64,000 bases of DNA from an uncultured Planctomycetia bacterium. Its GTDB lineage: Bacteria; Omnitrophota; Gorgyraeia; 2-02-FULL-51-18. Both the position numbers and the translations under genes were made by a program. Location of the stretch: positions 225,085-289,084 of the forward strand of contig CAZSGP010000001.1 of assembly GCA_964606485.1 (NCBI GenBank). Reading direction: 5' to 3'. The first letter of the stretch is position 1. Every line of letters begins with the position of its first letter. Positions 1-18,937 of this stretch are shown here, one piece after another. A model generated the notes under the pieces. That model had not been told where the DNA came from, did not search any database, and saw nothing but the letters and a program-made list of their open reading frames with translations.

Positions 1-3000
1 TCGAAGTCCGGTTCGAACGGTCCGTGGATTCCAATTATGAACCCGATTTCCGGTTTGGCGAATATCCCGAACTCTGGTTCGCTGTCCTGGACAGTGCCCG
101 ATGATATCACCAACAACGCCTATGTGAAGGTAGACGCTGCATCCGGTCCCGCGGTGAGCACGAAATCTCCCGCACAATTTAAAATCATGGCGCGTTTTGT
201 CATCACGGCTCCCACCGGCGGCGCTGTTCTTCTGGCGGGTCAAGACCAAACGATTTCTTGGAATAAGTGGGGTTCTGCGGCAACCACGGTCAGAATTGAA
301 CTTGCGACCGATGGAAGTGGCAATCCTCCAACCTACAACAAAATTCTTGATTTGAGCGCGCCGGCCGGAACGAGCACAGGCTCTTATAACTGGGCTGTCG
401 ATAACCCTGTGTCAGCAGCCAATAACGTAACGCCCACTGCGCGTCTAAGGATATACGACACAACCGACATTGACAGCGCGGCAACTTCTTCTAGTAATTT
501 CATCATTCGCGCAAGCTTTACGATGAGCCCGCTGATCGGAAGCGTTCCGCTCAAAGTCGGTGACACTTACGACGTGGTTTGGGCTAAAGTCGGTAATATT
601 CCTCAAGTCCTATTGCAGTATTCTCCGTTTAACAACTTTGGTGTCGATGCCCGCAACATTGAAGGTTCTGCGGCGGGCCTTGTGGCGAATGTGGGAGATT
701 CGGGCAAAGGAGATGGGCCTAACACCGCTCGCTTTGTGTGGACGGTACCGGACATCGACCCGGCAGAAGCTGACCATGTTTACTTGCGCGTTTCGGATCC
801 GAACGACTCCGGCGCCAAGAGCGTTTCCAACGAATTTATGATCAAGCCGAAGTTTACCGTAACTTCTCCGAATGGAAATGCGGATCCGAATCTTGCCGAA
901 AAATGGAAAGTAGGTATTTCTTATCCAATTACCTGGACGAGCTCCTCTGCTTTAGTGAATACGCCCACTGTAAAAGTTTCGTACTCCATAACCGGCGGCG
1001 CCTCATGGGTTCCTATTGCTACCGTTAGCAATAACGGGACCCGCAATTGGACGGTTCCGGATGCAATTTCGGAAGACGCTAAAATCCGCGTGGAAGATGC
1101 CAATGACGCCACGGCCTTCGATGATTCCAATGAAAATTTCAAAATCATCTCCAATTTCACTTCGATGGCGCCCAATGGCGGGCAGGTTCTAACGGTGGGC
1201 GACCTCACGCCGATCACATGGGGTTATCAGGGAACGGTGTCGAATGTAGAATTGTCTTACTCCACAGCAGGCTCCGATTTTTCTGCGGCGACTATTTTTG
1301 TTCCGTTTACGCAGGCGAATAATATTTCAACAAATCCGAATAATGGATCTCTGCCGAGCCAATGGACTGTGCCGGATGCGATTGGCTACAACACTAGAAT
1401 CAGAGTGAAGAGCTTTAATGACGACGGATACATTATTTCCGCGAGCGATTTCAGAATTAAAGGTAAGATCGAATTTAACTACGGCCAAGCTCCGCTTTCG
1501 GCCCCCATTTTGAGCGAGCCGGTGCCGATCGGTCAGCCCTACACGATTAAATGGAAAACAACCGGCACTATTCCTAACGTGAAGATTTTATATGATGTGA
1601 ATGACGGCAACGGAGCCGACAATAATCCCGGCACCGGAGACGAATTCTTGGGTGTCATCACAAATTCTGTTGCGAACACCGGCTCCTATGTATGGCCGGC
1701 TGTACCCGACCAAGGAACGGCATTTGCCAAAATTCGTGTGATCGATGCGCGTGTCGCTGAGGCAGACGTAATGGGCGATTCGGCCAAATTCAATATCGTG
1801 GGTAATTTGAGTGTGGTGACTCCAGCCGGCGCTGAAGCGTGGAAAGTGAATACGGCTCAGCAAGTCACATGGCATTGGGGCGGCACGATTCAACGCATTA
1901 AAGTTTCTTACACGACGAATCCAGCGGTGCTGGCATCCGATTCCAACGCTTGGACAACGGTCGAGACTATTGATTACGGCGCCAATAGCGGAAATGGAAA
2001 TAACGGTGCCGATCTTAGAACCTACAACTGGGCAATTCCGGACAGCATTTCACCGACGGTGCGCGTGAAAGTTGAAAATGCGGATGATTCGTCGGTATAC
2101 AGTGTGTCTCAGACCTTCAAAATCGTTGGTTCATTTAGAATCACCGCTCCAAATGGAAATGCGGATGTGACGCTGACCGATCGCTGGGTGACGAACGATG
2201 TATGGAATATTACTTGGGAAACCAACGGTAATATTCCGGCCGTCAAACTTCAATATTCCAATGACAATTTTGTGAGCGATATTCACGTCATCGACAATGC
2301 CGCTCCAAACGTACCCAATGGTTATTCAGGCGCTTATCCCTATGTCAGCAGCTATGCATGGCAAATTCCTGACGTGGTTCTTAAAGATGTCGGAGGCGCA
2401 TACACCGGACCCAATTTGGTGAAGGTCAGAGTGATTGACGCCAATGACGCGGCGGTGACCGATGTCTCCGATGATCCCTTCAAGATTGATTACTACAAAG
2501 TGACGTGGTTGTTGCGCGACTTGTCAACCTTTAAAGTTTTAACGGAATTGGGTGTCAAAGAGGTGAAATCATCAGACGCTAATTTCGTTCAATGGGTCGA
2601 GGCTGGTGTGGCTCAAGAATCTGCTCCCGGCGTATTACCTCCTTATAACCGCATTCAACCAACTCCGGCGGGGAGCTGGCTAGCCACATGGACTAAGACC
2701 GGTTATGGCGATGTGTCTCAGCTTGTGCTCTTAAACAAGAATCAACCGACGCTAGATCCGAAATATGTTATTTTCATGGAAACGACGGCCGTGCACATTT
2801 ATTTGGCCGAATCCAAATACAGCTTTGATCCGGGTAACAGCACGGTGATCCCGGCAATTCCGACTAAACTCGATATTATTGGTTGGCTCTCTCGTGACGG
2901 CGCCATCATCTCGGGTGTGGTGAACGCCAAAGTCGAAATTTACGACGGCACGACGCTAGTTGGAGGCGCGGCTATTCCTCTAGCGAAAGTGTTGGATGCC

Positions 3001-4188
3001 GGCACCGGAGCGGATACAGGCCTTTGGAATGCGAGCCGAACCAACGTAACGATCGCACCAATGAGCTTGCAGGCTGGTAAAACCTATATCGGCAAATGCT
3101 ACATGCAGATTGCAAGCCAAGTCGACGAAGACGTGTGGTATCAAACGCCGTCTGCGTTTGAAATCACCGCGTCCGTGAAACTTGAAGAGGTGAGAGCGAC
3201 CGTTGAGAAAAATATCGATAAACCGCTGTCACAATTCGCCACTGAAATGCAAGCGACTTTGGATAATCAGACGACCACTCTAACATCCAAGTTAGATGCT
3301 CAAACGGTAACTATACAGAGCACTCTGGATGCTCAGACTCAAATTATCACGTCCGCCATCACAGACTTTAATAATAGCGTCGCTAGCGCTATCACGGATC
3401 TCAATACGGCGGCCGATCGAAGCTTGGACGCGGCGGAAAACTTGGAAGACACGGCCAACAAATTTTCATGGAAAGCCGTTGTGGCTCCAAACCCGGCTCT
3501 CACCGGTGACTCGGTGATGTTGCAGGCGCAGGGACCGCCGAATCTCAAGCCGATTGTCAGTGTTTATAACAACACGAACAAGCAGGTTATTGCCGCGGCC
3601 ATTATGGAAGAAGAGTCTTTGCGCCCGGGCAATTACAGCTACACCTTTAAAGCCATGTCCTCAAGCTTCACTCCTGGTCAAGCGTATACGTACATTGTGA
3701 CGGAAGACGTCACGGGTGGTTTGGTGGCCGGTTCCGGATTCGTTGAAAGTATTTCGCTGACTGCCGTTGCCGGCTTGGCTAGCGCCGCACCTGCCGCTGA
3801 AAAAGCAGCCAAAGAAGCTGTGGAAGCCATCAAAGAACTTGAAACCACTATGGCTCGCGGCGGTGATTTGAAGAAAGCCCTTGTGAATTTACAGCGCTCC
3901 GTTGATTCCCTGCCGGATCAAGTCAGCAAGGTGAGCGGAGACACCAAGGGCGTTCGCTCTGCGGTGAACGAAATTTCCACTCGCTTGCAACAGCTCGCCG
4001 GAAACCAAGGGCTCGACTTTACTCAACTTTTTGCAAAAGCATTGGACGAAAATGCTAAAATAGAAGACATTCGCACCCGTTCCGGTGCCATTGTGAATTC
4101 ACTGGAACTCTTGGGGGCGATCGTCGAGAAGAGACTGGGTGGCGGCGACGAGCCGATTGTAGCGACCTTCCTGGAAGCTGCATCTTAA
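1..4188 (+). CDS. Giant secreted/cell-surface protein, 5'-truncated at the window edge. It has >=9 tandem ~90-100 aa Kre9/KNH-like (PF10342-like) beta-domains and a C-terminal coiled-coil region.
   Basis: The ORF is open to position 1 (first Met at 37). A recurring module reads 'F.I...F.ITAP.GG..L..G....ITW.......V.I.YS..G..W..I......W.VPD.IS..A.IRV.D.ND....D.SNE.FKI', with W(T/A)(V/I)PD motifs seen about 9 times. The C-terminal third has heptad-like 'LDAQT' repeats and a Lys/Ala/Glu coiled coil. Confidence 0.6.
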   Translation, partial: SKSGSNGPWIPIMNPISGLANIPNSGSLSWTVPDDITNNAYVKVDAASGPAVSTKSPAQFKIMARFVITAPTGGAVLLAGQDQTISWNKWGSAATTVRIELATDGSGNPPTYNKILDLSAPAGTSTGSYNWAVDNPVSAANNVTPTARLRIYDTTDIDSAATSSSNFIIRASFTMSPLIGSVPLKVGDTYDVVWAKVGNIPQVLLQYSPFNNFGVDARNIEGSAAGLVANVGDSGKGDGPNTARFVWTVPDIDPAEADHVYLRVSDPNDSGAKSVSNEFMIKPKFTVTSPNGNADPNLAEKWKVGISYPITWTSSSALVNTPTVKVSYSITGGASWVPIATVSNNGTRNWTVPDAISEDAKIRVEDANDATAFDDSNENFKIISNFTSMAPNGGQVLTVGDLTPITWGYQGTVSNVELSYSTAGSDFSAATIFVPFTQANNISTNPNNGSLPSQWTVPDAIGYNTRIRVKSFNDDGYIISASDFRIKGKIEFNYGQAPLSAPILSEPVPIGQPYTIKWKTTGTIPNVKILYDVNDGNGADNNPGTGDEFLGVITNSVANTGSYVWPAVPDQGTAFAKIRVIDARVAEADVMGDSAKFNIVGNLSVVTPAGAEAWKVNTAQQVTWHWGGTIQRIKVSYTTNPAVLASDSNAWTTVETIDYGANSGNGNNGADLRTYNWAIPDSISPTVRVKVENADDSSVYSVSQTFKIVGSFRITAPNGNADVTLTDRWVTNDVWNITWETNGNIPAVKLQYSNDNFVSDIHVIDNAAPNVPNGYSGAYPYVSSYAWQIPDVVLKDVGGAYTGPNLVKVRVIDANDAAVTDVSDDPFKIDYYKVTWLLRDLSTFKVLTELGVKEVKSSDANFVQWVEAGVAQESAPGVLPPYNRIQPTPAGSWLATWTKTGYGDVSQLVLLNKNQPTLDPKYVIFMETTAVHIYLAESKYSFDPGNSTVIPAIPTKLDIIGWLSRDGAIISGVVNAKVEIYDGTTLVGGAAIPLAKVLDAGTGADTGLWNASRTNVTIAPMSLQAGKTYIGKCYMQIASQVDEDVWYQTPSAFEITASVKLEEVRATVEKNIDKPLSQFATEMQATLDNQTTTLTSKLDAQTVTIQSTLDAQTQIITSAITDFNNSVASAITDLNTAADRSLDAAENLEDTANKFSWKAVVAPNPALTGDSVMLQAQGPPNLKPIVSVYNNTNKQVIAAAIMEEESLRPGNYSYTFKAMSSSFTPGQAYTYIVTEDVTGGLVAGSGFVESISLTAVAGLASAAPAAEKAAKEAVEAIKELETTMARGGDLKKALVNLQRSVDSLPDQVSKVSGDTKGVRSAVNEISTRLQQLAGNQGLDFTQLFAKALDENAKIEDIRTRSGAIVNSLELLGAIVEKRLGGGDEPIVATFLEAAS

Positions 4189-4213: not shown

Positions 4214-5002
4214 ATGAACGCTCGAAAAATTCTTCTGCTTACTTTATTCACAGCGCTTGTAGCTTCGTGGGCCGCTCACGAAGCTTATTCGGCGAGTGTT
4301 AAAATGAGAGTCGTGGTCGTTAATCCTTCCGATAAAAAAGAGCAAACCAAGTCCGTTCGCACTGAACTGCCGAAGGAAGTGAAGCAGAAAGACATTTTAG
4401 ATGCCGGTGGATTGGACATAGAGTACGATACCGAAAAGGGCGCTTTTTATGCCTCCAAAAATGACATTCCGCTAGCTCCTCTCGAGACTAAAATTTTTGA
4501 AATTGTCATGAACGACGTTTGGATTTGGCCTAAGGAAAACCTCGATTTCTTCCGTGAACAAACCAAAAAAATTGTGGCCAAATTAAAAGACACGTCGTTT
4601 GGCGAGCAGGCTGAACTCATCGCTAAAACCATTTATGGGCGTCTGGATGAAATTGAAACCAATCAGAACGATCAAAATGTTTCGCGTCAGCAGCACGTGG
4701 CGTATTTCCGCGAAGCCAATAAGACCATTGAGTCGGTGAAGGCGGATATCGAGCGACTGCAGAAACTGCTGATCACAGCAGGCGGCACGCCGAATCTCGA
4801 TCTTGTCGAAAACGCTGACGTGAAACTCAAATCCCCCAATACCAAAACGACCTGGATCGTTATCTTTGCCGTGATCTTGTTCGTCGCGATCTTGAGCGGC
4901 ACGTTTTACTTTACGTGGCTCAGGCAGTCCAGTAACTCGGACGCAGTATTTAAAAAAGAAAAAGACGCTTCTTTCGCTGAATTCAAACCCAAAAAAGAAT
5001 AG
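4214..5002 (+). CDS. Hypothetical exported protein with an N-terminal signal peptide and a C-terminal transmembrane anchor.
   Basis: The N-terminus 'MNARKILLLTLFTALVASWAAHEA' looks like a signal peptide. A single hydrophobic segment 'TTWIVIFAVILFVAILSGTFYF' lies near the C-terminus, followed by a Lys-rich tail. There is an 8-bp gap to the downstream epsilon gene. Confidence 0.45.
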   Translation: MNARKILLLTLFTALVASWAAHEAYSASVKMRVVVVNPSDKKEQTKSVRTELPKEVKQKDILDAGGLDIEYDTEKGAFYASKNDIPLAPLETKIFEIVMNDVWIWPKENLDFFREQTKKIVAKLKDTSFGEQAELIAKTIYGRLDEIETNQNDQNVSRQQHVAYFREANKTIESVKADIERLQKLLITAGGTPNLDLVENADVKLKSPNTKTTWIVIFAVILFVAILSGTFYFTWLRQSSNSDAVFKKEKDASFAEFKPKKE

Positions 5003-5009: not shown

Positions 5010-5255
5010 ATGGCGCTGACCCCGATTGAGGTGAAAGTCTTAAGTCCTCAGCGGCTCATTTTTGAAGGGCAAGCAAAGAGCATCATTCTCCCGGGAGAAT
5101 CGGGTGTTTTTGAAATTGCCCCGCATCACAAGCGTTTACTTTCCAGATTATTAGGCGGTTTTGTCATTATTGACAATAAGCGCATGTCGATTAAGCGCGG
5201 TGTAGTCAAGGCAGGCTTAAACAAAGTGACAATTATCGTTGAAGAAGATGATTAA
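5010..5255 (+). CDS. atpC: F-type ATPase epsilon subunit, N-terminal beta-sandwich domain only (81 aa). The C-terminal helical hairpin is absent.
   Basis: 'LTPIEVKVLSPQRLIFEGQAKSIILPGESGVFEIAPHHKRLLSRLLGGFVII' matches the epsilon consensus (LxVVTPE...PG..G..GILP.HAPLLT.L.PG.V.I). The protein stops after ~80 aa, with no helical domain. Confidence 0.7.
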   Translation: MALTPIEVKVLSPQRLIFEGQAKSIILPGESGVFEIAPHHKRLLSRLLGGFVIIDNKRMSIKRGVVKAGLNKVTIIVEEDD

Positions 5256-6804
5256 AAAAAACGCTCCGGTTATATTTATTTTTTTGATGGGGATTGGCCT
5301 TTATGTCAATTCTCTCTGCGGCCCATTTATCTATGACGATCTAGAGCTCGTCCGGAACAACGGCAAACTCCAAAGTTTCCAGGCTCTTTCGCAATCCTTT
5401 AAGCAGGATATTAATTTATCGACGGGCCGGACCGGTTTTTTTTACCGGCCCTTTCTTCAGGTGACTTATGCCTTGGACAGTCATTTTTGGAAGGGAAGGG
5501 TTTATGGGTATCATGCCACGAGCATTGTGCTTCACGCGCTTGCGGCTTTGGCGCTCGCTTCTTTAATTTTCATTCTTTTTGGAGATAAACTCGTCGCGTT
5601 TTTAACAGCTCTTTTGTGGCTCGTGCACCCTGTGCATACCGAAGCTGTTTCTTATATTTCAGGACGCGCCGATCCTCTGGCAGCACTCCTACTTTTGTTG
5701 GCGCTTATTTTTTATGTGAGGGGAGACTATGCACACCGGCTGCGAAATCTTTCCCTGCTCATCATTTTTTATGCGCTTGCACTCCTATCTAAAGAACATA
5801 GCCTTATTTTTTTAGCCCTGATCGCTCTCGTTCATCTTGTTTTTAAGAAGCGAATTCAGTGGCCGGCGCTAATTGCGGTAGCGACACTTTCTCTTTTTTA
5901 CGGTTTTTTACGATTTTCTCAGTTACAGACCTTGCTTTCAAATCCTCTCAATCCCAGTACACTTGCGGAGCGTTTACCCGGTTTTTTTGTGGCAGTTGCT
6001 AAATATTTCAAACTTCTCGCGTGGCCTACGAATCTGCGAATGGAGTATGGCCTAAAAATATTCACATTTGCGGACCCTAGAGCCATAGTGGGGGTTGGTA
6101 TTTTAGCGGCCCTCTTTGCCTCTCTCTATTTTTTAAGAAAAAACCGTGTCTGGGTTTTTGGAATCGGCTGGTTTCTCATCACACTTTTACCGGTATCCAA
6201 TCTTTTTCCCATCAATGCATTTATGGCGGAGCACTGGCTCTATCTGCCCTCAATGGGGCTATGGCTCGCTTTTGCCGGCTTATTTTCAAGGGTGCTCCAG
6301 TCTCGCAAGCGTCTAGTTGCGGCACTCGCTTTGGCTGCACTCGCTTCGATGTATAGCCAGGCGACAATGGCTCAAAACAGTTATTGGAGTGACGCGGTAC
6401 TCTTTTACGAACGCACGTTGAAATTTGAACCCAATAATGCGCGCATGTGCAATAACCTCGCCGGAGTTTACAAAGATAGGGGAGACTTTGAGAGCGCAAA
6501 AACTTTCTACCAAAAAGCAATTACCATTGATCCGAATATTGCCGATGTTTATTTTAATTTGGGGACGATTTACGCTCAGGAGAATGATTTGGGAACAGCC
6601 ATGGATTGTTACCAGAAAACCGTTGAGCTGAATCCCAATTTTGCGCTGGCCTACAACAACATGGGCGCGCTTTACCAGGCGCACGGTCAAAATGAGCTCG
6701 CTTTGCTACAATACGAAAAGGCACTAAAACTCAATCCAAACTACAAGCGAGCCGCTGAAAATCTTTCAAATATTAAAATGAGATTGGGGAAGAGCAATGG
6801 ATAA
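5239..6804 (+). CDS. TMTC/PMT-like GT-C family membrane glycosyltransferase (DUF1736-type) with C-terminal TPR repeats.
   Basis: About 10 predicted TM helices. 'FIYDD' acidic motif in loop 1 and 'HPVHTEAV' motif. The C-terminus has about 4 TPR units ('NNLAGVYKDRGDFESAKTFYQKAITIDPN...'). The start overlaps the atpC stop by 17 nt and the stop overlaps the atpE start by 8 nt. Confidence 0.7.
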   Translation: MKKMIKKNAPVIFIFLMGIGLYVNSLCGPFIYDDLELVRNNGKLQSFQALSQSFKQDINLSTGRTGFFYRPFLQVTYALDSHFWKGRVYGYHATSIVLHALAALALASLIFILFGDKLVAFLTALLWLVHPVHTEAVSYISGRADPLAALLLLLALIFYVRGDYAHRLRNLSLLIIFYALALLSKEHSLIFLALIALVHLVFKKRIQWPALIAVATLSLFYGFLRFSQLQTLLSNPLNPSTLAERLPGFFVAVAKYFKLLAWPTNLRMEYGLKIFTFADPRAIVGVGILAALFASLYFLRKNRVWVFGIGWFLITLLPVSNLFPINAFMAEHWLYLPSMGLWLAFAGLFSRVLQSRKRLVAALALAALASMYSQATMAQNSYWSDAVLFYERTLKFEPNNARMCNNLAGVYKDRGDFESAKTFYQKAITIDPNIADVYFNLGTIYAQENDLGTAMDCYQKTVELNPNFALAYNNMGALYQAHGQNELALLQYEKALKLNPNYKRAAENLSNIKMRLGKSNG

Positions 6805-7015
6805 AAATGTCGCTATTATTTTGGTCTTCACGCTTTGCATTTTGGGGCCAACCGCCATTATTGCCGCGGCAGGGCATGCCAGTATTTCAGCTCTCGGCCG
6901 TAATCCCTCGGCCGCTCCCAAGATCTTTACCGCTATGACGATGATGCTCATCTTTGGCGGTATGATTTCCATTGTGGCTCTGCTTGTTCTTTTTCAGCTT
7001 TACGCTACCAAATAA
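6797..7015 (+). CDS. atpE: F-type ATPase subunit c-like proteolipid (72 aa helical hairpin). It apparently lacks the conserved ion-binding Glu/Asp in helix 2.
   Basis: Two hydrophobic helices joined by the polar loop 'ALGRNPSAAPK' (compare the conserved c-subunit 'ARQP(E/D)' loop). Helix 1 is Ala/Gly-rich ('IIAAAGHASISALG'). It sits directly upstream of the b/delta gene. No acidic residue occurs anywhere in helix 2 ('IFTAMTMMLIFGGMISIVALLVLFQLYA'). Confidence 0.6.
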   Translation: MDKNVAIILVFTLCILGPTAIIAAAGHASISALGRNPSAAPKIFTAMTMMLIFGGMISIVALLVLFQLYATK

Positions 7016-7074
7016 AGACAGCCCCCCTCCTTGCTTTTTTTGTTAATTTTTGTTAAAATTTAGATAAAATTTAA

Positions 7075-7151
7075 TGTCATTGCGAGGAGCTTTTGCGACG
7101 AAGCAATCTAGATTTTAGAGCGAGATTGCTTCGCTGACGCTCGCAATGACA
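7075..7151. repeat. Copy 1 of a ~77-bp palindromic intergenic repeat (REP/MITE-like double-stem hairpin).
   Basis: tgtcattgcgag...gaagcaatct..agattgcttc...ctcgcaatgaca. The outer 12-bp and inner ~10-bp inverted repeats are shared with copies at ~22234 and ~25578. Coordinates are +/-2 nt. Confidence 0.75.
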
Positions 7152-7165
7152 AATAGGGGAGTTCG

Positions 7166-7894
7166 ATGCTATTTTTAGTTCTAGTGGTTATTCAGCTCGT
7201 CATCTTCGGTGTCCTGATTTTTCTCCTTAAAAACGTCCTCACCCGCAATGTCCGCACGGCGACCGCGCACCTGAATGAGTTGAACCAAGACTACACTCAA
7301 AAAATGGACGAAGCCAATAAGCGCATGCACGAAGCGGAAAAATTTTACGATGACGCGATTTTGCGATCCAAGACCGATGCCGAACGAGCAAAAATGGAAA
7401 TTTTAAAAGAGGCGCGGTCGCAAGATGAGCAGATTGTAGGGGATGCGCGAAAACAAAGCACCGAAATTTTGGAGCAGGCGCGCCGCGCGCGGGATCTCAT
7501 GATTGAAGAGATTGAACAGAAAATTGAAGTCCGCGCTGTTGAAAGGGCGAGCGAGTTTCTGGCTCAGATCCTTCCTTCTGAAATCAGTATGGATATGCAC
7601 ACTAAATGGACCGAGCAAATCCTTAAAAAAGGATTTTCGGATTTGTCGCGCATGAATTTTCCGGACGGGGAGCTCAAAGTAAAAATTATTTCGGCTTACG
7701 AATTGACAGCGGATCAAAAATCTCAAATCGAAGAAATTCTCCGCACCGCGCTCAAGCGTGAATTTTCTCTGGAAACAGCGTCCGACGTCAGTTTGGTTGC
7801 CGGTATCCAGGTAACAGTGGCCAGTATCGTGATTGACGGAACACTGAAATTTAAGATCCGGGAGATAGCCCGCCGTGCCCAACGAACTGAATAA
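7166..7894 (+). CDS. atpFH: Compact F-type ATPase b-delta fusion stator subunit. It has an N-terminal TM helix, a b-like coiled coil and a delta/OSCP C-terminal domain.
   Basis: N-terminal TM 'LFLVLVVIQLVIFGVLIFLL'. A charged coiled coil typical of subunit b. The C-terminus 'LVAGIQVTVASIVIDGTLKFKIREIARRA' matches the delta C-terminal consensus (LLGGV.V.IGD.VIDGSVRGRLERLA). At 242 aa it is too short to contain a delta N-terminal domain. Confidence 0.7.
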   Translation: MLFLVLVVIQLVIFGVLIFLLKNVLTRNVRTATAHLNELNQDYTQKMDEANKRMHEAEKFYDDAILRSKTDAERAKMEILKEARSQDEQIVGDARKQSTEILEQARRARDLMIEEIEQKIEVRAVERASEFLAQILPSEISMDMHTKWTEQILKKGFSDLSRMNFPDGELKVKIISAYELTADQKSQIEEILRTALKREFSLETASDVSLVAGIQVTVASIVIDGTLKFKIREIARRAQRTE

Positions 7895-8028
7895 TTGGCC
7901 GAAAAAGCCCATCTGCTGCGTTGCTCTCTGCGCTTCCTCAGTCGACGTACGTAAGCGTACGCCTTCTTCGGTCGCTTGGTCGCGCCTTGCATATAGGCTT
8001 TTTGGACCAATTATTGAAGACGGTGAAA

Positions 8029-9501
8029 ATGGCTCCTGATACGACTACGGCGCAGTTTGAAATGCGCGAAGTAGGGCATTTAAAATCCATTAAGCGCTTT
8101 ATTGCTGTGACCGACGACTTGAACTCCTGTATCAATGGCCAGCTCGTGGAGTTTGAAAAAGGAGCGCGCGGCATTGTCATGGGATTTACACACGACAAAA
8201 TTCAAATTTTAGTTCTAGGGCCCACCCAAGGAATCCGTTTGGGGGACGAAATTTATAATCGCGGCGAGTCCTTCAATCTCCCAGTGGGTGAAAAATTTAA
8301 AGGCCGCGTGGTGACCGCTCTCTGCGAGCCAGCGGACGGGCTCGGACCCATTCATGCAGATGACCGGTACCCGGTTTTTCAAGACGCACCCGGCATTATT
8401 GACCGCGAACAGCTCACCGAAACCATGGAAACCGGAACATTTGCGCTCGATGCCGGTATTCCTATTGCCAAAGGACAGCGCCAGCTTTTAATCGGCGACC
8501 GTGGAACGGGAAAAACAACAATCGGCATTGACGCCATTCTCAATCAAAAGGGAAAAGGTGTTATCTGTATTTATTGCGTGATTGGGAAACCGTATTCGAG
8601 CCTTGTCAAAACCTTAGGTCTCCTTCATGAACAGGGGGCGATGGAGCACACGATTGTCGTGAGTGCGGTCGCATCGACCTCTCCTGGTGAGCAGTACATC
8701 GCGCCGTACACTGCGGCGATGCTGGGCGAATATTTCATGAAATCCGGTCGTGATGTGCTTTGCATTTTTGACGATCTCACGAAGCACGCGTGGGTTTACC
8801 GACAAATTTCACTGCTCCTCGAGCGACCTCCGGGTCGCGAAGCGTATCCGGGTGACATTTTTTATATTCACTCTCAACTTTTAGAGCGCGCCGGGCGATT
8901 CACCAAAGATTTAAAGGGCGGTTCGATGACATTTTTACCGATTGTCGAAGTGCTGCAGGGGGACGTGACGGGTTACATCCCCACCAATATTATTTCCATC
9001 ACCGACGGGCAAACGTATTTTTCGACGAACCTTTATAACAAAGGCCACAAGCCCCCGATCGATTTCGGTTTGTCGGTGTCGCGTATTGGAAATAAGGGAC
9101 AGTGGTCGGCCATGAAAGACGTGTCGAAGAGTCTCCGCTTGGAATACCTTCAGTACCAGGAAATGCTTCAGATGACTCAGCTTCGCTCCGGAGGCCTTTC
9201 AAAAGACTCGGAGGCGCGTTTAAAGCGCGGGGAAGCGCTGACGCAGCTTTTAGTGCAGACCAAAAATAAACCGGTTTCTATTCCAGAACAAGTGTTTTTT
9301 TTAATTGCGCTCGGAAAAGGGGTTCTTGACCCGCTTCCTGCGGCACAGATCAAAAAATTTAAAGTGGAAATTTCCGACTTCGTCGATAAAAAAGACCCTG
9401 CAATTTTAAAAGAGCTCAACGAAACAAAAAAACTAACGGACGCAAACAAAGAAAAAATCGTGAACTGTTTAAAGCAGTATTTTGAAAGCGTGGGAGGCTA
9501 A
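8029..9501 (+). CDS. atpA: F-type ATPase alpha subunit.
   Basis: P-loop 'GDRGTGKTTIGIDAILNQKG' and overall F1-alpha architecture. The internal Met at 8029 was chosen because the upstream 36 codons look non-native. Confidence 0.9.
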   Translation: MAPDTTTAQFEMREVGHLKSIKRFIAVTDDLNSCINGQLVEFEKGARGIVMGFTHDKIQILVLGPTQGIRLGDEIYNRGESFNLPVGEKFKGRVVTALCEPADGLGPIHADDRYPVFQDAPGIIDREQLTETMETGTFALDAGIPIAKGQRQLLIGDRGTGKTTIGIDAILNQKGKGVICIYCVIGKPYSSLVKTLGLLHEQGAMEHTIVVSAVASTSPGEQYIAPYTAAMLGEYFMKSGRDVLCIFDDLTKHAWVYRQISLLLERPPGREAYPGDIFYIHSQLLERAGRFTKDLKGGSMTFLPIVEVLQGDVTGYIPTNIISITDGQTYFSTNLYNKGHKPPIDFGLSVSRIGNKGQWSAMKDVSKSLRLEYLQYQEMLQMTQLRSGGLSKDSEARLKRGEALTQLLVQTKNKPVSIPEQVFFLIALGKGVLDPLPAAQIKKFKVEISDFVDKKDPAILKELNETKKLTDANKEKIVNCLKQYFESVGG

Positions 9502-10358
9502 TGCTCCCAGCAACGTTCATCAAGCGGCAGATTGATTTCAATAAACAATTCCGCTCGCTCTTGGACGTGATGAAACTTGTGGCCGTATCCCAGTACCATA
9601 TTTTGGAAAAAAAGCTTCAGTATTTTGATTTGTTCGGTGAAGTGCTCACAGAGTTTTTTGATTCGATTGATGTGAGCCGTGTGAATCACCCTTTTTTAAA
9701 CGGGGGAGACAAGCCGGTAGGGGTTTTGGCGATCACGTCCGACGGGGGACTTTTAGGTGGCATGAACATGCAGGTCATTGCAAAGGCGGTGGATATTTTG
9801 TCGCGTCAGCCAGGAAAGCTGATCATCGTGGGGGAACGTGGACAGATTTATGCGCAGGGTTTTGGAATGTCCTTCACCTACTTTACCGGGATCATCGACA
9901 ACGAGCGCTACGCGCAGGCGATGACGGTGCGGGATTATGTGACGCAGGAAATTTTAAATGGAAATTTAGGGGGATTAAAAGTGGTGTTTCCGAGAGCGTT
10001 GTCGCTCGTGATGAATAAAATTGAAGTCGAGACGCTCGTACCCTTTACGCGTAAAGACGCCGAGGGTGCCGCGCCTAAAACTGGCGGAAGTCTAGCGCAA
10101 GTGATTTTAGAAACGCGCCCTGAAGACATTGCGGAATACTTGGTTTACTTGTACGTAGGGGAGCGGCTATACGAAGTGTTTGGCATGGCGCGACTCGCCG
10201 AACAAGCGGCACGTTTTGTGCACTTGGAAGAAAGCTGTCAAAAAATTCAGGATATGAACAATAAATTGCTCCTTCAGTATTTTAAACGACGTCATGAAAT
10301 TATCGATTCCAATATGCGCGAACTTTTTTCCGCAAAGAAAGCTTATGCCGATGGCTGA
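9501..10358 (+). CDS. atpG: F-type ATPase gamma subunit.
   Basis: 285 aa, gamma-like N- and C-terminal helices ('...LYVGERLYEVFGMARLAEQAARFVHLEES...'). It overlaps the alpha stop by 1 nt and the beta start by 8-14 nt. Confidence 0.8.
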   Translation: MLPATFIKRQIDFNKQFRSLLDVMKLVAVSQYHILEKKLQYFDLFGEVLTEFFDSIDVSRVNHPFLNGGDKPVGVLAITSDGGLLGGMNMQVIAKAVDILSRQPGKLIIVGERGQIYAQGFGMSFTYFTGIIDNERYAQAMTVRDYVTQEILNGNLGGLKVVFPRALSLVMNKIEVETLVPFTRKDAEGAAPKTGGSLAQVILETRPEDIAEYLVYLYVGERLYEVFGMARLAEQAARFVHLEESCQKIQDMNNKLLLQYFKRRHEIIDSNMRELFSAKKAYADG

Positions 10359-11757
10359 GGATAAGAAAATTTTAACGCCGGGAAAAGTAGTGGGTGTTCA
10401 AGGTCCCGTGGTGGACGTGCGGTTTACCCTTCAAAAGGACGTGCCCGATATTTACAACGTCATTCATGTTCAGTCCATGGACAACCGAAAAGTAACGCTT
10501 GAAGTCGTGGAGCATTTGCCTGGAAATTTAGCGCGCTGTATCGCCATCGAATCCACTCAAAATCTTCAGCGTTTTGCCGTGGGCCAACCGTCTGGAAAAC
10601 CCGTTGAAATTCCGGTCGGGGACTGTCTTTATACGCGCTGCGTGAATGTGCTCGGCCAGCCCATCGACAAAATGGGTCCGATTGAGTCTAATCTTTACAT
10701 GCCTATCCGCCGGCCGGAGTCGGGCACGCGAGTTCCGGACTTTAGTAAACAAAAGCGCCGTGGCGAAGAAGTGCTAGAAACGGGTATTAAAATTATCGAT
10801 CTGCTTTACCCGCTCGTCAAAGGAACAAAAACGGGGATCTTAGGGGGAGCGGGTCTTGGAAAAAGCGTTATCACGCTCGAAGTCATTCACCACGTCGTGC
10901 AAAAACATCAGGGTTCGTGCGTTTTTGCGGGTATCGGAGAGCGCTTGCGCGAAGGAAACGAACTTTTTTATGAACTGCGTGAACATGATCTTCACACCAA
11001 AACCATGCTCGTGTTTGGACAGATGAATGACCCGCCCGGCGCGCGTTTCGGTGTGGCTATGACCGGAATCACCATGGCTGAAGCCGTGCAAAAACAAAAC
11101 AAAGACGTGATCTTCTTTGCCGACAACGTGTTTCGTTTTATTCAAGCCGGAGCCGAAATTTCGACCCTGCTTGGCCGCGTGCCGTCCGAAACAGGGTATC
11201 AACCGACACTCATTTCCGAGTCGAGCGAATTTCATGAACGCATCCGCGAAGGGCAGGGCACCGGCGGATCGATCACCTCTATTGAAGCCGTTTACGTTCC
11301 CGCCGACGACATGACCGACCCTGCCGTCGTGGCCATCTTCTCATTTTTAAATTCTTTAATGGTGCTTTCCCGCGAACGCGTGCAGATGGGACTTTACCCA
11401 GCGATTGACCCGCTTCAATCGTCCTCGTCTAATTTAGATCCGGACGTGGTGGGCCAGCGCCATTACGACGCCTCCCAAGAAGTTATGCGCGTGTTCCAAA
11501 AATACGAAGAACTCCGCCGCATCGTTATGGTGATCGGAATCGACGAATTGTCCAAAGCCGACCGTACGATTTACGAACGCGCCCGGAAAATGCAATTTTT
11601 TCTGACTCAGCCTTTCGCCGTAGCAGAACGCTACACCGGCAAAAAGGGCGAGCACGTCCCCATCCGCAACACGCTAGATGGCTGTGAAAGAATATTATCT
11701 GGTAAAATGGACCGCAAACCTGAGCAAGAGTTTTACATGATCGGATCATTGGTTTGA
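10351..11757 (+). CDS. atpD: F-type ATPase beta subunit (catalytic).
   Basis: Walker A 'GGAGLGKSV', 'VFAGIGERLREGNELF' and DELS motif 'DELSKADR'. The start is at MAEDKK (10351) or MPMAEDKK (10345). Confidence 0.9.
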   Translation: MAEDKKILTPGKVVGVQGPVVDVRFTLQKDVPDIYNVIHVQSMDNRKVTLEVVEHLPGNLARCIAIESTQNLQRFAVGQPSGKPVEIPVGDCLYTRCVNVLGQPIDKMGPIESNLYMPIRRPESGTRVPDFSKQKRRGEEVLETGIKIIDLLYPLVKGTKTGILGGAGLGKSVITLEVIHHVVQKHQGSCVFAGIGERLREGNELFYELREHDLHTKTMLVFGQMNDPPGARFGVAMTGITMAEAVQKQNKDVIFFADNVFRFIQAGAEISTLLGRVPSETGYQPTLISESSEFHERIREGQGTGGSITSIEAVYVPADDMTDPAVVAIFSFLNSLMVLSRERVQMGLYPAIDPLQSSSSNLDPDVVGQRHYDASQEVMRVFQKYEELRRIVMVIGIDELSKADRTIYERARKMQFFLTQPFAVAERYTGKKGEHVPIRNTLDGCERILSGKMDRKPEQEFYMIGSLV

Positions 11758-11776: not shown

Positions 11777-12232
11777 ATGCTTCTAGGAGAACGCTTAGTC
11801 AGACTCGGTAAAATTACCGAAGATCAATTGAATGAAGCGCTGACAGAGCAAAAAAATACGAGTGAGTTTTTGGGGAATATTTTGCTCCGGCGTGCTTGGA
11901 TTCGTGAAGACGACTTAACCGAAGTTTTATCCGAGCAGTTCGAGATGCCTTTTATGAAACTCAAGAACGAGTATCTTGACTGGAATTTGATTTTGACATT
12001 TTCGTCAACACTTGTCGTAGAACACAAATGCGTCCCCTTTCGAAAAGACGAAAAAGGGTACACGGTTGCGATCACCAATCCTTTAGACGCGATGGCTATC
12101 AGTGAGGCAGAGAAGCTGGCGCAAAGGGGAGACCGGGTTTCGATTGTTTTGGTGACGCCCAGTCAGATGCATACGGTGATTCGTGAGTATCAAAAACGTT
12201 TATCCGATAAAATAAAAGGACTATTGGGGTAA
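11777..12232 (+). CDS. Stand-alone MshEN/T2SSE_N domain protein (GspE N-terminal domain, a likely c-di-GMP-binding module).
   Basis: 'LGERLVRLGKITEDQLNEALTEQ' fits the MshEN motif RLG..L(V/I)..G.I....L..AL..Q. A good RBS lies 20 nt after the atpD stop. Confidence 0.65.
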   Translation: MLLGERLVRLGKITEDQLNEALTEQKNTSEFLGNILLRRAWIREDDLTEVLSEQFEMPFMKLKNEYLDWNLILTFSSTLVVEHKCVPFRKDEKGYTVAITNPLDAMAISEAEKLAQRGDRVSIVLVTPSQMHTVIREYQKRLSDKIKGLLG

Positions 12233-12238
12233 AAGCGC

Positions 12239-14404
12239 GTGATTACTAAAATTGACACCACGCTCGTCAAACTTCTCGTCGAAAAAAATTTAATCGACCA
12301 GGAAACACTTTCGCCCTTTATCGAAGAAGCGGGAAAATCCAAAGACAATCTTTATGTGCTCCTTTTGCGCTCCGGAAAATTTCCAGAAGAGCGTTTGCTT
12401 TTAGGGCTTTCAGAGGCAATGAAAGTTCCGCTGGTGGAGCTTGGGTCTAAGCAGCCGGACACCACGGTGATTGAAAAAGTACCGCTTAAGATTGCCGAGT
12501 ACTATAAACTCGTTCCGCTCAAAATCGAAAATCGAAGGCTCACTATTGCCATTTCAGCGCCCTTTGATGTCCGCACCCAAGATGACATTCACACTCATTT
12601 GGGCTTTGATCTGGACCTGGTTTTAGCCAGAGAGAAAGATGTCTTAGACGCCATTAAACGTTTCTACGGATTCGCGACCGGAACCATCAATGAAATGATC
12701 GCGTCCGGTTCAGATATTGCGACAACCCTGCCGGACCGCGCTTTTGAAGCCGTGGAAAACATTGAAAAGCTCGCCGGTGACGCATCGATTGCAAAGCTTG
12801 TGAATCAGATTATTCTAGAGGCATTTCGAAAACGCGCGACCGATATTCACTTAGAGCCTTACCGCGGAAAAGTAAAACTACGCTACCGCATTGACGGCAC
12901 GCTGTACAACGCGAACGTTCCGCCTGAAATTGGCCGTTTTATTTTGCCTATTTTGTCGCGCATTAAAATCATGTCGAATTTAAACATCGTCGAAAAACGT
13001 CTCCCGCAAGACGGGCGCGCGATTGTAAAAATTGAAGACACTCAGCTTGACCTTCGCGTGTCCTCGATCCCCACGCCTTACGGCGAAAGTGTGGTGGTGA
13101 GAATGCTCCCCATGAACCGCGTGATCAGTCTCACTCAACTCGGGCTCGGCAACCGGGAACTCAATTTATTTCAGACGATGATTAAAAAACCACACGGAAT
13201 TATTTTTATCACGGGTCCGACCGGCAGCGGAAAAAGCACGACTCTTTACGCGTGTCTCAATCAGCTCAACTCCGACGACCGGAAAATTATCACGATTGAA
13301 GATCCGGTTGAATACGAAATGGAGGGCGTCACTCAAATTCAAGTGGCCGGCAACATTGGCCTTGATTTTGCAAAAGGTTTGCGCAGTATCCTGCGTCATG
13401 ACCCAGACGTCATCATGGTGGGAGAGGTTCGCGATCTCGAGACTGCTGAAACAGCCATCCGCGTCGCACTCACCGGACATCTTGTTTTTTCAACGCTTCA
13501 CACCAACGATTCGGCAAGCTCTGTTACGCGTTTAGTGGATATTGGTGTTGAGCCGTATCTTGTTTCCTCGAGCGTTGAAGCGTTTATTGCTCAGCGACTT
13601 GTGCGAACGATTTGTTCGCATTGTAAACAAGAAGACAAGACGATGACGCAGTACGAAGCCAAAAAATTAATCGCCAAAGAAACGGACACCAAAGTAGACG
13701 ATGTGCGGCTTTTTTATGGCAAAGGATGCAATCAGTGCAATAACACTGGCTTCTGGGGACGCGTGGCCATTTATGAAATTCTTCTCATGAACGACAAGTT
13801 GAGAGATCTTGTGATGCAGAAAGCGTCGGCGGAAGAAATTAAAAAACTAGCCGTGGCTCAAGGCATGCGCACGCTTCGCCAGGATGGTTGGGAAAAAGTG
13901 TTGGCCGGTGTCACGACGCCGGAAGAAATTTTAAAAGTAGCCCCGGCAGATAAGGCAGGGGAGATTCTCTCGCCCGAACTTAGATCTGAAGAACCCGTTT
14001 CCACGAAGGAAGCAGCGGAAAATATTATTTCCCGTTACAACGATCGCCGTCAATTTGAACGCTTAAAAGACACGGTGAATATTCGTTACCGGATTATCAA
14101 ATCCAAAGACCCGATTCGCAAAATGGCTCCGAGCTCCGAAGAGTACACCGTCACGAAAGACGTGTCTGCGGGCGGACTACTGCTTGTCACGCGAGAAAGT
14201 ATTCCGGTCGGATCGATACTCGAGCTAAAAGTAGAATTGCCCGACGGACCCCCAGCTATTGAATGTTTAGCGAAGGTGATGCGCGAAGAGGAGCTCGTCA
14301 AAGAAAATATGTTTCAGCTCGGCATTTGCTTTTTAGATCTCACGGGTTCTCAGCGAGCGCGTTTGTTCAAGTATGTTGAGACGGAAGGCGGAGTGGCCGC
14401 ATGA
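12239..14404 (+). CDS. gspE: Type II secretion / type IV pilus assembly ATPase (GspE/PilB family) with a C-terminal PilZ domain.
   Basis: T2SSE_N N-terminal domain. Walker A 'GPTGSGKST', Walker B 'DPDVIMVGEVRD', His-box 'LVFSTLHTNDSAS' and tetracysteine 'CSHCK...CNQCNNTG'. C-terminal extension with PilZ motifs 'DRRQFER' and 'DVSAGGLLL'. Probable GTG start. Confidence 0.9.
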   Translation: MITKIDTTLVKLLVEKNLIDQETLSPFIEEAGKSKDNLYVLLLRSGKFPEERLLLGLSEAMKVPLVELGSKQPDTTVIEKVPLKIAEYYKLVPLKIENRRLTIAISAPFDVRTQDDIHTHLGFDLDLVLAREKDVLDAIKRFYGFATGTINEMIASGSDIATTLPDRAFEAVENIEKLAGDASIAKLVNQIILEAFRKRATDIHLEPYRGKVKLRYRIDGTLYNANVPPEIGRFILPILSRIKIMSNLNIVEKRLPQDGRAIVKIEDTQLDLRVSSIPTPYGESVVVRMLPMNRVISLTQLGLGNRELNLFQTMIKKPHGIIFITGPTGSGKSTTLYACLNQLNSDDRKIITIEDPVEYEMEGVTQIQVAGNIGLDFAKGLRSILRHDPDVIMVGEVRDLETAETAIRVALTGHLVFSTLHTNDSASSVTRLVDIGVEPYLVSSSVEAFIAQRLVRTICSHCKQEDKTMTQYEAKKLIAKETDTKVDDVRLFYGKGCNQCNNTGFWGRVAIYEILLMNDKLRDLVMQKASAEEIKKLAVAQGMRTLRQDGWEKVLAGVTTPEEILKVAPADKAGEILSPELRSEEPVSTKEAAENIISRYNDRRQFERLKDTVNIRYRIIKSKDPIRKMAPSSEEYTVTKDVSAGGLLLVTRESIPVGSILELKVELPDGPPAIECLAKVMREEELVKENMFQLGICFLDLTGSQRARLFKYVETEGGVAA

Positions 14405-15654
14405 TTTATTCGTACCGGGCTAAAAAAGGGCCCAAAGAGCTCGTAGAAGGAACGATAGAAGCGCTGACTGTCGAGGATGCGATTGAGCGGCTCAGCGAAA
14501 AAGGGCTTTTGCCAATCGACGTTCAAGAAGCTAAAGTTCAAGCGGTCGAAGCGCCGAGTCCCCGCGCATCGACGAAGCCTTTACCGCGCAGTCAGCCGGG
14601 CCGCATTACACTTTTTGGAGGGATACGGTCGTCCGAGATCACTGTTCTTTCCCGGCAATTGGCGAGCCTGCTCAAAGCGGGCGTGCCTATTTTGCAAGGT
14701 CTTTGGATTTTGTCCGAACAAACTCAAAATCCGAAACTTAAAAAAGTTTTGACGCACATTCAAGAAGAGGTTAATAACGGTAAATCTCTCTCAGCGATTT
14801 TTTCGCTCTACCCAAAATATTTTCCTCCTATTTACATTGCCATGATTCGCACCGGAGAAGATAGCGGCACGCTTGACTCGGCCCTTTCTCGAATTGCCGA
14901 ATACCGCCGCAAACAGGAAGAAATGCGCTCGCGTGTTCTTTCGGCGATGGCGTACCCGATTCTCATGGCCATCACCGGAGCGGGAACCGTGATATTTATG
15001 CTCACGTTCGTGATTCCAAAGCTAACCAAACTATTTGCAAATTTAGGCCAGAGTCTGCCGGCTCCCACGCGCATTCTGATGACGATGAGTGAATTTTTAA
15101 AACAGCCGGCATTTTGGGGTGTGATCGGCATTCTTGTTGTGGCATTTAATTTATGGGTAAGACTTGCTCCGCAAATGGCACGCGCGGCGTGGAGCGCATT
15201 TAGTTTGAAATTGCCCATCATTAAAGGATTTGTGATGAAATCCGAGATGGCGCGTTTTTCAAGAACCATGGAGCTTCTTTTAAAATCGGGCGTCACGGTT
15301 TTAAGAGCCATTGAAATTACGACGCCGGTTTTAAAGAATGTAATTTTGCGCGCTGAATTTTCAAAGGCCTACCAATCCATCACCGGGGGAGGGTCGCTCG
15401 GAAAATCTTTAAAGGAATCCAAAATAGTGCCGATGTTTGTTTCAAACCTGATCTCGATTGGCGAAGAATCCGGAAAATTAGACGACACAATGAGCGAAAT
15501 CGCGGACTTATATGAACGCGAAACCGACGAGGCGATCCGCGTGATGACCTCGCTGATGGAACCGCTGATGATTTTAGTGATGGGCGGCATTGTGGGTTTT
15601 ATTGTGATTGCGATGATGTTGCCGATGTTTGAATTGAATATGGCAGTTAAATGA
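14401..15654 (+). CDS. gspF: T2SS/T4P platform protein (GspF/PilC family).
   Basis: Duplicated GspF domain architecture with three TM segments. The 4-nt start/stop overlap with gspE is typical. Confidence 0.9.
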   Translation: MIYSYRAKKGPKELVEGTIEALTVEDAIERLSEKGLLPIDVQEAKVQAVEAPSPRASTKPLPRSQPGRITLFGGIRSSEITVLSRQLASLLKAGVPILQGLWILSEQTQNPKLKKVLTHIQEEVNNGKSLSAIFSLYPKYFPPIYIAMIRTGEDSGTLDSALSRIAEYRRKQEEMRSRVLSAMAYPILMAITGAGTVIFMLTFVIPKLTKLFANLGQSLPAPTRILMTMSEFLKQPAFWGVIGILVVAFNLWVRLAPQMARAAWSAFSLKLPIIKGFVMKSEMARFSRTMELLLKSGVTVLRAIEITTPVLKNVILRAEFSKAYQSITGGGSLGKSLKESKIVPMFVSNLISIGEESGKLDDTMSEIADLYERETDEAIRVMTSLMEPLMILVMGGIVGFIVIAMMLPMFELNMAVK

Positions 15655-16535
15655 ATGCAAAACAATCGCAAAACGTCGACGGGTCCTGCCGGCGGTTGTC
15701 CGTTCGGAACCACCTGCGGTGGCTTCCGAGACGGACGCCTACCGCCGTCACCCCTCGACGTTTCGCGATTTTAAGCATTCTCGCTCTATCGATCTGCTGG
15801 TGTTTGGGGGTAGGGGCAGCCGACTGGCAAGAAGTCAAAGGCGATCACTTCATCGTGTATTACATGCAGAACGAGAAGTTCGCCAAAGACACAGCGCATA
15901 AAGCCGAGCAGTATTATGTGAGCATTGCCGACGAACTGGGGTATCCGCGCTACTCCAATTTTTGGCAGTGGGATAACCGGGTTAAAATTTATATTTACCC
16001 AACCCAAGCGGATTATTTAAAGGGGTCGGGCGAGCCAGCGTGGTCGAAGGGCTTCGCGCGCTACAAAACGAAGGACATTTTGACGTATGAGTGGAGCGAC
16101 AGTTTTTTAGAAGCTTTGCTCCCGCATGAAATTACCCATTTAATTTTTAGGGATTTTGTTGGATTCAAAGGCGAAATTCCTCTCTGGATGGACGAGGGGG
16201 TTGCGCAGTGGCAGGAGCCTAAGAAACGGGAAGCTGCCAAAGAAATTGCGAGATATCTTTTAAAGAACCAAAAAGCATTTACGTTTGAATCGCTGATGCA
16301 AATGGACATTCGCGGTTCAAAAAATGAAGAAGAAGTTTACAATTTTTACATGCAATCGGTGACGATTGTGGATTTTATGGTCAAGCGCTACGGCGCGCAA
16401 AGTTTTACCGAGTTCTGCCGGCAGTTGCGGGATGGGAAATCGCTGAATGAAGCTTTGCGGTTTGCTTACCCTGCATCGGGCGGGAATATTGAAAATTTGG
16501 AGAAAGAATGGAAAAAAGTCGTGATGGAGGAATGA
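15651..16535 (+). CDS. Membrane-anchored HExxH-motif protein (putative zinc metallopeptidase-like) embedded in the secretion/pilus operon.
   Basis: Arg-rich N-terminus, then one TM ('FAILSILALSICWCLGVGAA'). 'LPHEITHLIF' HExxH motif. ATGA overlap with the gspF stop. Confidence 0.5.
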   Translation: MNAKQSQNVDGSCRRLSVRNHLRWLPRRTPTAVTPRRFAILSILALSICWCLGVGAADWQEVKGDHFIVYYMQNEKFAKDTAHKAEQYYVSIADELGYPRYSNFWQWDNRVKIYIYPTQADYLKGSGEPAWSKGFARYKTKDILTYEWSDSFLEALLPHEITHLIFRDFVGFKGEIPLWMDEGVAQWQEPKKREAAKEIARYLLKNQKAFTFESLMQMDIRGSKNEEEVYNFYMQSVTIVDFMVKRYGAQSFTEFCRQLRDGKSLNEALRFAYPASGGNIENLEKEWKKVVMEE

Positions 16536-17916: not shown

Positions 17917-17919
17917 GGC

Positions 17920-18933: not shown

Positions 18934-18937
18934 TCGC

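Follow-up and report, generated by a model that had tools for sequence, protein, structure and literature searches.

In F-type ATP synthases, the beta-sandwich domain of subunit epsilon joins the foot of subunit gamma to the c-ring and is needed for the assembly of F1 onto the membrane sector. The C-terminal two-helix hairpin of the same subunit is a brake that protects ATP when the ion gradient collapses, and the inhibition that it exerts is relayed by the canonical DELSEED loop of subunit beta. The subject of the present analysis is an atpC-like gene for an epsilon subunit of 81 amino acids (aa) consisting of the beta-sandwich N-domain only, which lies at 5010..5255 on the + strand of a 64-kb stretch of DNA (hereafter the window; contig CAZSGP010000001.1, positions 225,085 to 289,084) from an uncultured bacterium of the Omnitrophota. 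The type of locus to which this gene belongs has already been published: Seymour et al. (2023; Nat Microbiol, PMC10066038) reported genes for a 'symbiotic', non-respiratory F-type ATPase beside type-4a pilus clusters in every Omnitrophota class, with pilus genes within 10 kb on 57 of 66 contigs. The assignment is based on trees of subunits alpha and beta, and the enzyme was likened to the Mycoplasma ATPases of Types 2 and 3 (PMC10066038). The term-searchable portion of the main text and supplements makes no mention of a short epsilon, a carboxylate-less c, a missing subunit a or a Lys finger. In the source data, one species cluster is listed with KEGG orthologues (KOs) covering a, b, c, alpha, beta, delta and gamma but with none for epsilon, which is a hint only with regard to the epsilon of 'respiratory' Omnitrophota operons.

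Loss of the hairpin has precedents, both engineered and natural. When the C-terminal domain (CTD) of epsilon is deleted, ATP is hydrolysed 1.5- to 2-fold faster by the E. coli enzyme, about 5-fold faster by that of Bacillus PS3 and about 7-fold faster by C. thermarum F1; the P. denitrificans enzyme is unaffected, and ATP synthesis is in no case compromised (PMC8039183). Removal of the CTD releases a brake and gives no directional bias. Many alpha-proteobacterial epsilons are C-terminally truncated, the F1-Fo connecting function being the conserved one (PMC9317440). Mycoplasma F1-like ATPases of Types 2 and 3, which are hydrolytic, have an epsilon-like subunit with two C-terminal helices (PMC3369863). 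Epsilons that consist of the beta-sandwich alone are also common among Bacteroidota, whose ATP synthases are ordinary ones. Named examples are those of Tannerella forsythia (81 aa, annotated 'beta-sandwich domain protein'), Olivibacter and Sphingobacteriaceae (84 aa), and Chitinophagaceae and Flavisolibacter (85 aa). No direct statement that Bacteroidetes/Chlorobi epsilons lack the CTD was found in the literature, and the point is shown instead by database proteins and their names. On the 6.5-Mb Olivibacter chromosome (L026), the gene for the 84-aa epsilon follows a canonical atpD with the motifs GGAGVGKT, GERTREG and DELSEED; atpD-atpC stand alone there, an example of a split atp operon.

The open reading frame (ORF) of the window epsilon extends over 81 codons from an ATG at 5010 to a TAA at 5253-5255. 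The sole Pfam match of its product is PF02823 (ATP-synt_DE_N; E=5.9e-13, 49.1 bits against a cutoff of 27), in which residues 7-78 cover profile positions 2-78 of 80. PF00401, the family of the C-terminal two-helix hairpin, is unmatched in the Pfam scan, and the protein stops at the last strand. In the NCBIfam epsilon model TIGR01216, residues 6-78 align with positions 2-79 of 130; the score of 50.6 bits is under the equivalog cutoff of 67.25 because the NCBIfam epsilon models align over their first ~80 positions only. The T. elongatus epsilon (2rq6, 138 aa) is likewise aligned over chain residues 4-78 only. An AlphaFold2 model made from 82 homologues has a predicted local distance difference test score (pLDDT) of 92.8, with eight strands and zero helix. 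Its top Foldseek match in the PDB is 8yh8_H, the engineered CTD-deleted epsilon of Bacillus PS3 (87 aa). The E. coli epsilon 1aqt is found with a TMq of 0.86 but a TMt of 0.52, so full-length epsilons of this kind are matched through the N-domain only. NF009983, an NCBIfam epsilon model of 88 positions, gives 21.7 bits against a cutoff of 106, and judged by profile score the window epsilon family is a short-epsilon lineage separate from it. The preliminary description of this DNA had read the atpC product as 81 aa ending right after the beta-sandwich, with the hairpin absent, and both readings are borne out by the lone PF02823 match and the all-beta model.

For remnants of a CTD, all forward frames from 5150 to 5800 were translated. 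The epsilon frame continues into a non-helical stub of 26 aa, the second frame is full of stops and the third is the next gene; a Pfam scan at E<=1 matched nothing in the stub or in the N-terminal 151 aa encoded by the next gene. A frameshifted CTD, which the preliminary description had raised as a possible refutation, is rejected on these grounds. The next gene does begin inside the last epsilon codons, either at an ATG at 5248 (as called in L022, a contig identical to the window) or at a TTG at 5239 (in the ORF list), and from the ATG this 518-aa gene overlaps the epsilon stop by 8 nt. The identical 81-aa protein is present in independent Logan and ENA assemblies, and also in the NCBI record on a 546-kb contig. 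In six other loci the epsilon stop is directly followed by the coding sequence of subunit c, which leaves no space for a second epsilon domain. A run of eight A (5254-5261) begins after the T of the epsilon stop codon TAA. Slippage on this run was considered and dismissed, as a +1 shift would merely fuse epsilon to a TPR membrane protein that is absent from this place in every other genome.

Homologues of the window epsilon were searched in a collection of 5.8 billion proteins. All close homologues (82/82) are 56-88 aa long (median 81), contain PF02823 only and stop a few residues past a conserved '..TIIVEE' strand. In the alignment of these 82 sequences the mean column identity is 60%, and P28, G29, E30, G32, H40, G50 and G64 are invariant. 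The dN is 0.17-0.56, against a dS of at least 1.6 or saturated. A wider profile search with the family against 1.84 billion representatives gave 3692 matches; among the best 150 of these, 128 do not exceed 103 aa and 19 reach 120 aa or more. The nearest full-length relatives, where named, belong to Leptospirales/Spirochaetes, and the search for an epsilon of a 'respiratory' Omnitrophota operon found none. With regard to the short epsilons of Bacteroidota, subunit beta of the window is only 42% identical to that of Olivibacter, compared with 48% to Candidate Phyla Radiation (CPR) sequences and 54-57% within the pilus-linked clusters. A common origin with the Bacteroidota short epsilon is thus unsupported, and the truncation in the two groups is probably independent.

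The window epsilon is co-encoded with subunits gamma, alpha, beta and c of an F-type ATPase, all on the + strand. Subunit c (6797..7015, 72 aa; PF00137 at 23.8 bits against a cutoff of 24) has a Gly at the position of the conserved ion-binding Glu. In the alignment, its homologues carry Gly, Ala, Ser or Thr in this column, and 119 of the 120 best c homologues are without any acidic residue in transmembrane (TM) helix 2, which excludes ion binding by the known mechanism in the window's clade. Subunit a was searched for with a hidden Markov model (HMM) built from eight CPR a subunits against six-frame translations, and no match was found in the 64-kb window or in the ~10-kb flanks (less on shorter contigs) of 11 loci (L002-L009, L024, L025 and L027). 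The 518-aa membrane protein encoded between epsilon and c was considered as a divergent subunit a and discarded, since it matches Pfam TPR families only, has no match to the a model and is absent from the other loci.

Subunit alpha (7921..9501) has an intact P-loop and a Lys in place of the arginine finger. Its finger motif, GHKPPIDFGLSVSR near 9040-9080 (GHKPPIDFG), corresponds to 'GIRPAVN' around R376 of E. coli alpha, and an ungapped alignment to solved alpha chains confirms the position of the finger. The Lys is shared by nine of the ten other pilus-linked loci with a readable alpha, including those labelled Lentisphaerales and Planctomycetota; Arg is found only in L006. Subunit beta (10351..11757) keeps the P-loop (GGAGLGKS), the catalytic Glu of GERxREG (GERLREG) and Walker B. 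Its DELSEED loop reads DELSKAD, and DELSKSD or DELSKQD in relatives, all less acidic than the canonical sequence. Gamma (9501..10358, 285 aa) is recognised by PF00231 with E=1.2e-35. A b/delta fusion of 242 aa (7166..7894) combines an N-terminal TM helix and a b-like coiled coil with the C-terminal part of delta (OSCP) only: the match to PF00213 spans profile positions 100-170 of 172, OSCP is present just as its C-terminal third, and the N-domain of delta that caps alpha is missing. Alpha and beta pass the standard models, with 528 bits against 484 for TIGR00962 and 551 against 463 for TIGR01039.

The gene order around epsilon was compared with that in the pilus-linked relatives L001-L009, L024, L025 and L027. 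The closest genomes are metagenome-assembled genomes (MAGs) of Omnitrophota, some labelled 'uncultured Planctomycetia', with beta subunits 76-85% identical to that of the window; more divergent clusters come from another Omnitrophota MAG (L024), a Lentisphaerales MAG (L025) and a MAG labelled Planctomycetota (L027), with epsilons of 81, 77 and 76 aa, respectively. In the loci long enough to be read (L002-L004 and L006-L008) the order is conserved as giant surface protein, ~262-aa protein, epsilon, c, b/delta, alpha, gamma, beta. Epsilon lies directly upstream of c, often with a stop/start overlap, in L002-L008, L024, L025 and L027. Downstream of beta, most loci continue with an MshEN protein, followed by PilB/GspE and further genes for a pilus or type II secretion system (T2SS), and the PilB/PilC-type linkage of the ATPase cluster is common to all the loci named. 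By comparison, the canonical order a-c-b-delta-alpha-gamma-beta-epsilon is seen in CPR loci with a beta subunit 48% identical to that of the window, and their epsilon ORFs of ~140-175 codons include the helical hairpin.

As judged from these sequences, the complex is probably a repurposed F-type ATPase of Omnitrophota, linked to pilus genes and working without an ion gradient. The 81-aa protein would be a complete and, by prediction, functional epsilon that is naturally reduced to the beta-sandwich domain. Its role would be that of a structural part of the rotor in an F-type ATPase of its own kind, epsilon-c-b/delta-alpha-gamma-beta without any a found. In Omnitrophota and related MAGs, the genes of this ATPase are putatively transcribed together with those of a T2SS/type-IV-pilus-like machine and of large surface proteins. 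By analogy with epsilon in known enzymes, it would still bind gamma and the c-ring, and the enzyme would presumably rotate. In the window's clade, a c-ring without the carboxylate together with the lack of any detected a implies that the complex does not run on an ion gradient, which leaves only the binding or hydrolysis of ATP; it would then be a machine that consumes or binds ATP and is tied to the pilus/T2SS-like system next to it. The hairpin may have been lost, or never inherited, having nothing left to regulate; without gradient-dependent reversal as a risk, the complex could do without it. Loss of the CTD would thus presumably follow from the changed function and not be its cause. As a whole, the explanation of a complete short epsilon acting as structural rotor piece of an ion-uncoupled, pilus-linked F-type ATPase is regarded as fairly probable. 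The preliminary description had also concluded that the complex is repurposed. This conclusion stands by way of c, a, alpha and the PilB/PilC linkage, and the argument from epsilon alone is weak.

With c, b/delta, gamma and epsilon all retained, the architecture of rotor and stator has presumably been kept, and the presence of all rotor and stator parts suggests rotation without ion coupling. A more specific proposal is that the 81-aa epsilon forms the rotor foot of an ion-blind, ATP-driven rotary machine, in which gamma, epsilon and the c-ring would turn against alpha3beta3-b/delta and hand on torque or conformational work to the co-encoded type-IV-pilus/T2SS-like apparatus or else to the conserved membrane-anchored proteins and the giant surface proteins. 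This proposal is put forward tentatively, as a possibility with less than an even chance of being right.

Several observations weigh against the explanation of an ion-uncoupled ATPase or against the place of the short epsilon in it. Short epsilons are found in normal synthases of other phyla, as in the Bacteroidota, so that length by itself is no functional signal; the preliminary description had named common short epsilons in normal synthases of the same lineage as a refutation of its claim. The ion-binding Glu of c is retained in the divergent clusters L024, L025 and L027, and the short epsilon and the Lys finger must therefore be older than the loss of the carboxylate, which means that the short epsilon is not tied to this loss. 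Subunit a could be encoded elsewhere in the genome, the window covering 64 kb of a 546-kb contig. In addition, a Lys at the finger position could make catalysis very slow or point to a role other than catalysis.

Among the alternatives, the one that survives best is the version given in the preliminary description, according to which loss of the inhibitory arm is itself the adaptation that produces a freely hydrolysing F1 motor, the truncation being the signature of a 'motor mode'. It agrees with the stimulation of ATPase activity by CTD deletion in E. coli, PS3 and C. thermarum F1 (PMC8039183), with the short form in all members of the pilus-linked cluster and with the less acidic loop of beta (DELSKAD). 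However, synthesis is unimpaired by removal of the CTD and P. denitrificans shows no effect at all. Bacteroidota with ordinary synthases share the short epsilon yet keep DELSEED, as in Olivibacter, and alpha-proteobacteria have truncated epsilons as well. The hydrolytic F1-like ATPases of Mycoplasma retain the two helices, and the Lys finger, going by established F1 enzymology, points to slower hydrolysis and not to faster. The step from a missing arm to favoured hydrolysis is accordingly a weak one, and this version is considered unlikely.

Less likely again is that the complex is an ordinary ATP synthase whose epsilon is short in the way of those of Bacteroidota, with subunit a encoded elsewhere and ATP being made. 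Alpha and beta above the TIGR00962 and TIGR01039 cutoffs, the existence of split atp operons (Olivibacter L026, atpD-atpC) and the c Glu kept in the three divergent clusters would all fit such an enzyme. It is difficult to reconcile with the absence of an acidic TM2 residue from all but one of the 120 c homologues in the window's clade, with the Lys finger, with the lack of an a match in the 64 kb and the 11 other loci and with the invariable pilus/T2SS linkage. Furthermore, Seymour et al. (2023) place alpha outside the respiratory clade (PMC10066038). These points make an ordinary synthase rather improbable.

The joint loss of the epsilon CTD, the c carboxylate, subunit a, the arginine finger and the delta N-domain could also be taken for decay, in which case the cluster would be a relic and the short epsilon a functionless remnant. 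Against this, all genes are intact and stand in the same order across MAGs labelled as three phyla, the sequences are strongly conserved with dN well below dS, and the catalytic site of beta is intact; a decaying relic is highly improbable. That the short ORF is an artefact, whether from a frameshift, from faulty assembly or as the pseudogene of a full-length atpC, counts as already refuted by these data, as the eight-A run could in principle cause slippage but the same protein occurs in independent assemblies, every close homologue is short, no frame holds a helical remnant, c begins at the epsilon stop in other genomes and a +1 shift yields only a fusion to the TPR protein.

The genes flanking the ATPase subunits are also encoded on the + strand. 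The first conserved gene of the cluster is that of a giant surface protein with a match to a Kre9/KNH-like immunoglobulin (Ig) domain, of which the 3' part lies at 37..4188 and which runs off the start of the window. It is at least 2683 aa long in L022, and homologues lie upstream of the cluster in L002-L008. This gene, with its Kre9/KNH-like Ig repeats, heads an operon-like array of ATPase and pilus genes. In L024 a 4513-aa gene sits in its place, L025 likewise has a large ORF there, and these two may be unrelated to it. The next gene (4214..5002), conserved just upstream of epsilon, encodes a family-less protein of ~262 aa with a signal-like N-terminus and a C-terminal TM helix, a topology that recalls the signal-peptide and C-terminal-TM proteins of the Mycoplasma F1-like clusters. 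Relatives judged by eye are found in L024 (8260-9087, 275 aa) and in L025 (5413-6762, 449 aa, apparently with two domain copies).

The 518-aa protein encoded between epsilon and c (5248..6804) has multiple TM helices and C-terminal TPR repeats, and its N-terminal membrane part has no Pfam match. Its gene overlaps both neighbours by 8 nt. It occurs in the window genome only, being missing from the epsilon-c junction in L002-L008, L024, L025 and L027. Another local peculiarity is seen in L025, which has a pair of alpha-like genes (487 and 518 aa) at 7022-10004, upstream of epsilon, and none between b/delta and gamma; one of the two has no recognisable finger motif.

Downstream of beta, 11777..20943 contains T2SS/type-IV-pilus-like genes for an MshEN protein, PilB/GspE with PilZ, PilC/GspF, a peptidase MA protein, GspG/J/K-like pseudopilins, a PilM-PilN fusion and a PilO-like protein. 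At 11777-14404 the stand-alone MshEN protein is followed by the PilB/GspE ATPase, which itself carries MshEN and a C-terminal PilZ domain. The domain content suggests that the adjacent machine may be under the control of cyclic di-GMP (c-di-GMP). Farther along, 43155-56727 holds two gene sets for outer-membrane efflux (OEP), one of them followed by HlyD-type and AcrB/RND-type genes. Heavy-metal-binding (HMBD) domains, a multicopper oxidase, membrane proteins with DUF2231 and an extracytoplasmic function (ECF) sigma factor are encoded with them, and the whole probably forms an island of copper/silver resistance. Scans of the 64-kb window for tRNAs and with Rfam found nothing.

Taken alone, the short epsilon is another natural example of a dispensable regulatory hairpin, and the window family adds a separate, well-conserved short-epsilon family outside Bacteroidota. 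Its main value is as one of five coordinated departures, namely the epsilon CTD, the c carboxylate, the a that was not found, the Lys finger and the delta N-domain. As far as sequence can tell, a pilus-linked F-type ATPase with these five departures is almost certainly not making ATP from an ion gradient. With epsilon, gamma, c and b/delta retained, a c-ring that rotates without ion coupling becomes a concrete idea that can be tested, and the adjacency of epsilon and c and the Lys finger are specific hooks for biochemical and structural work on the 'symbiotic ATPase' of Omnitrophota. If the ion-blind rotary machine proposed above were real, the F-type rotary ATPase would have been put independently to one more use, beyond synthesis, ion pumping, Mycoplasma gliding and MIB-MIP antibody cleavage, and one that is spread over MAGs labelled Omnitrophota, Lentisphaerales and Planctomycetota.

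Compared with known systems, the closest structural match to the window epsilon is provided by engineered CTD deletions (PS3 8yh8, E. coli and P. denitrificans eps-delta88), in which the N-domain alone assembles. These are laboratory constructs in chemiosmotic enzymes, which lose the brake and retain synthesis. Natural counterparts are the short epsilons of Bacteroidota, which have the same length, PF02823 alone and no hairpin, that of Olivibacter being ~40% identical. They differ in following atpD (beta-epsilon order) and in belonging to normal synthases with a DELSEED loop in beta, whereas the window epsilon opens its operon next to c.

The N-ATPases (alternate F1F0, atpDCQRBEFAG) resemble the window cluster as a second, divergent F-type operon with no separate delta and a long b; the b/delta fusion aligns end to end with the N-ATPase b model TIGR03321 (E=1e-11, below cutoff). 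They differ from the window cluster in having a subunit a as well as AtpQ/AtpR, a c that binds ions and an epsilon whose model has 122 positions. All N-ATPase (alt-F1F0) models are under cutoff for the window, the epsilon model TIGR03166 scoring 14.5 bits against 100.

With the Mycoplasma Type 2 and Type 3 F1-like X0 ATPases, comprising the G1-ATPase of the gliding motor and the MIB-MIP-associated enzyme, the window cluster shares an F1-derived alpha/beta/gamma/epsilon module put to a use other than synthesis. In addition, the genes of both lie with those of large surface proteins, which are anchored in the membrane and have a signal peptide as well as C-terminal TM helices. The Mycoplasma epsilon-like protein has 17 kDa and unlike the window epsilon keeps two C-terminal helices (PMC3369863, PMC12994834). 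The seven-gene clusters of Mycoplasma have no homologues of c, b or delta and a 12-TM protein instead, whereas the window has c and b/delta and no 12-TM protein. All scores with the Mycoplasma-type NCBIfam models are under cutoff, with 397 bits against 600 for alpha, 415 against 850 for beta and further scores of 293 against 520 and 372 against 570.

A further close counterpart is the 'symbiotic' locus of Omnitrophota, which comes from the same phylum and has alpha and beta with pilus genes within 10 kb. In the window, beta ends at 11757 and PilB starts at 12239, so that the F-type genes lie within the same distance of type-4 pilus genes. The window alpha may also belong to the non-respiratory clade of the alpha tree, for which the Lys finger and the 76-85% identity of beta to other pilus-linked loci are indirect support. 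Furthermore, the related locus L008 comes from the RIFCSPHIGHO2_02_FULL_51_18 lineage, a class named by Seymour et al. (2023; PMC10066038).

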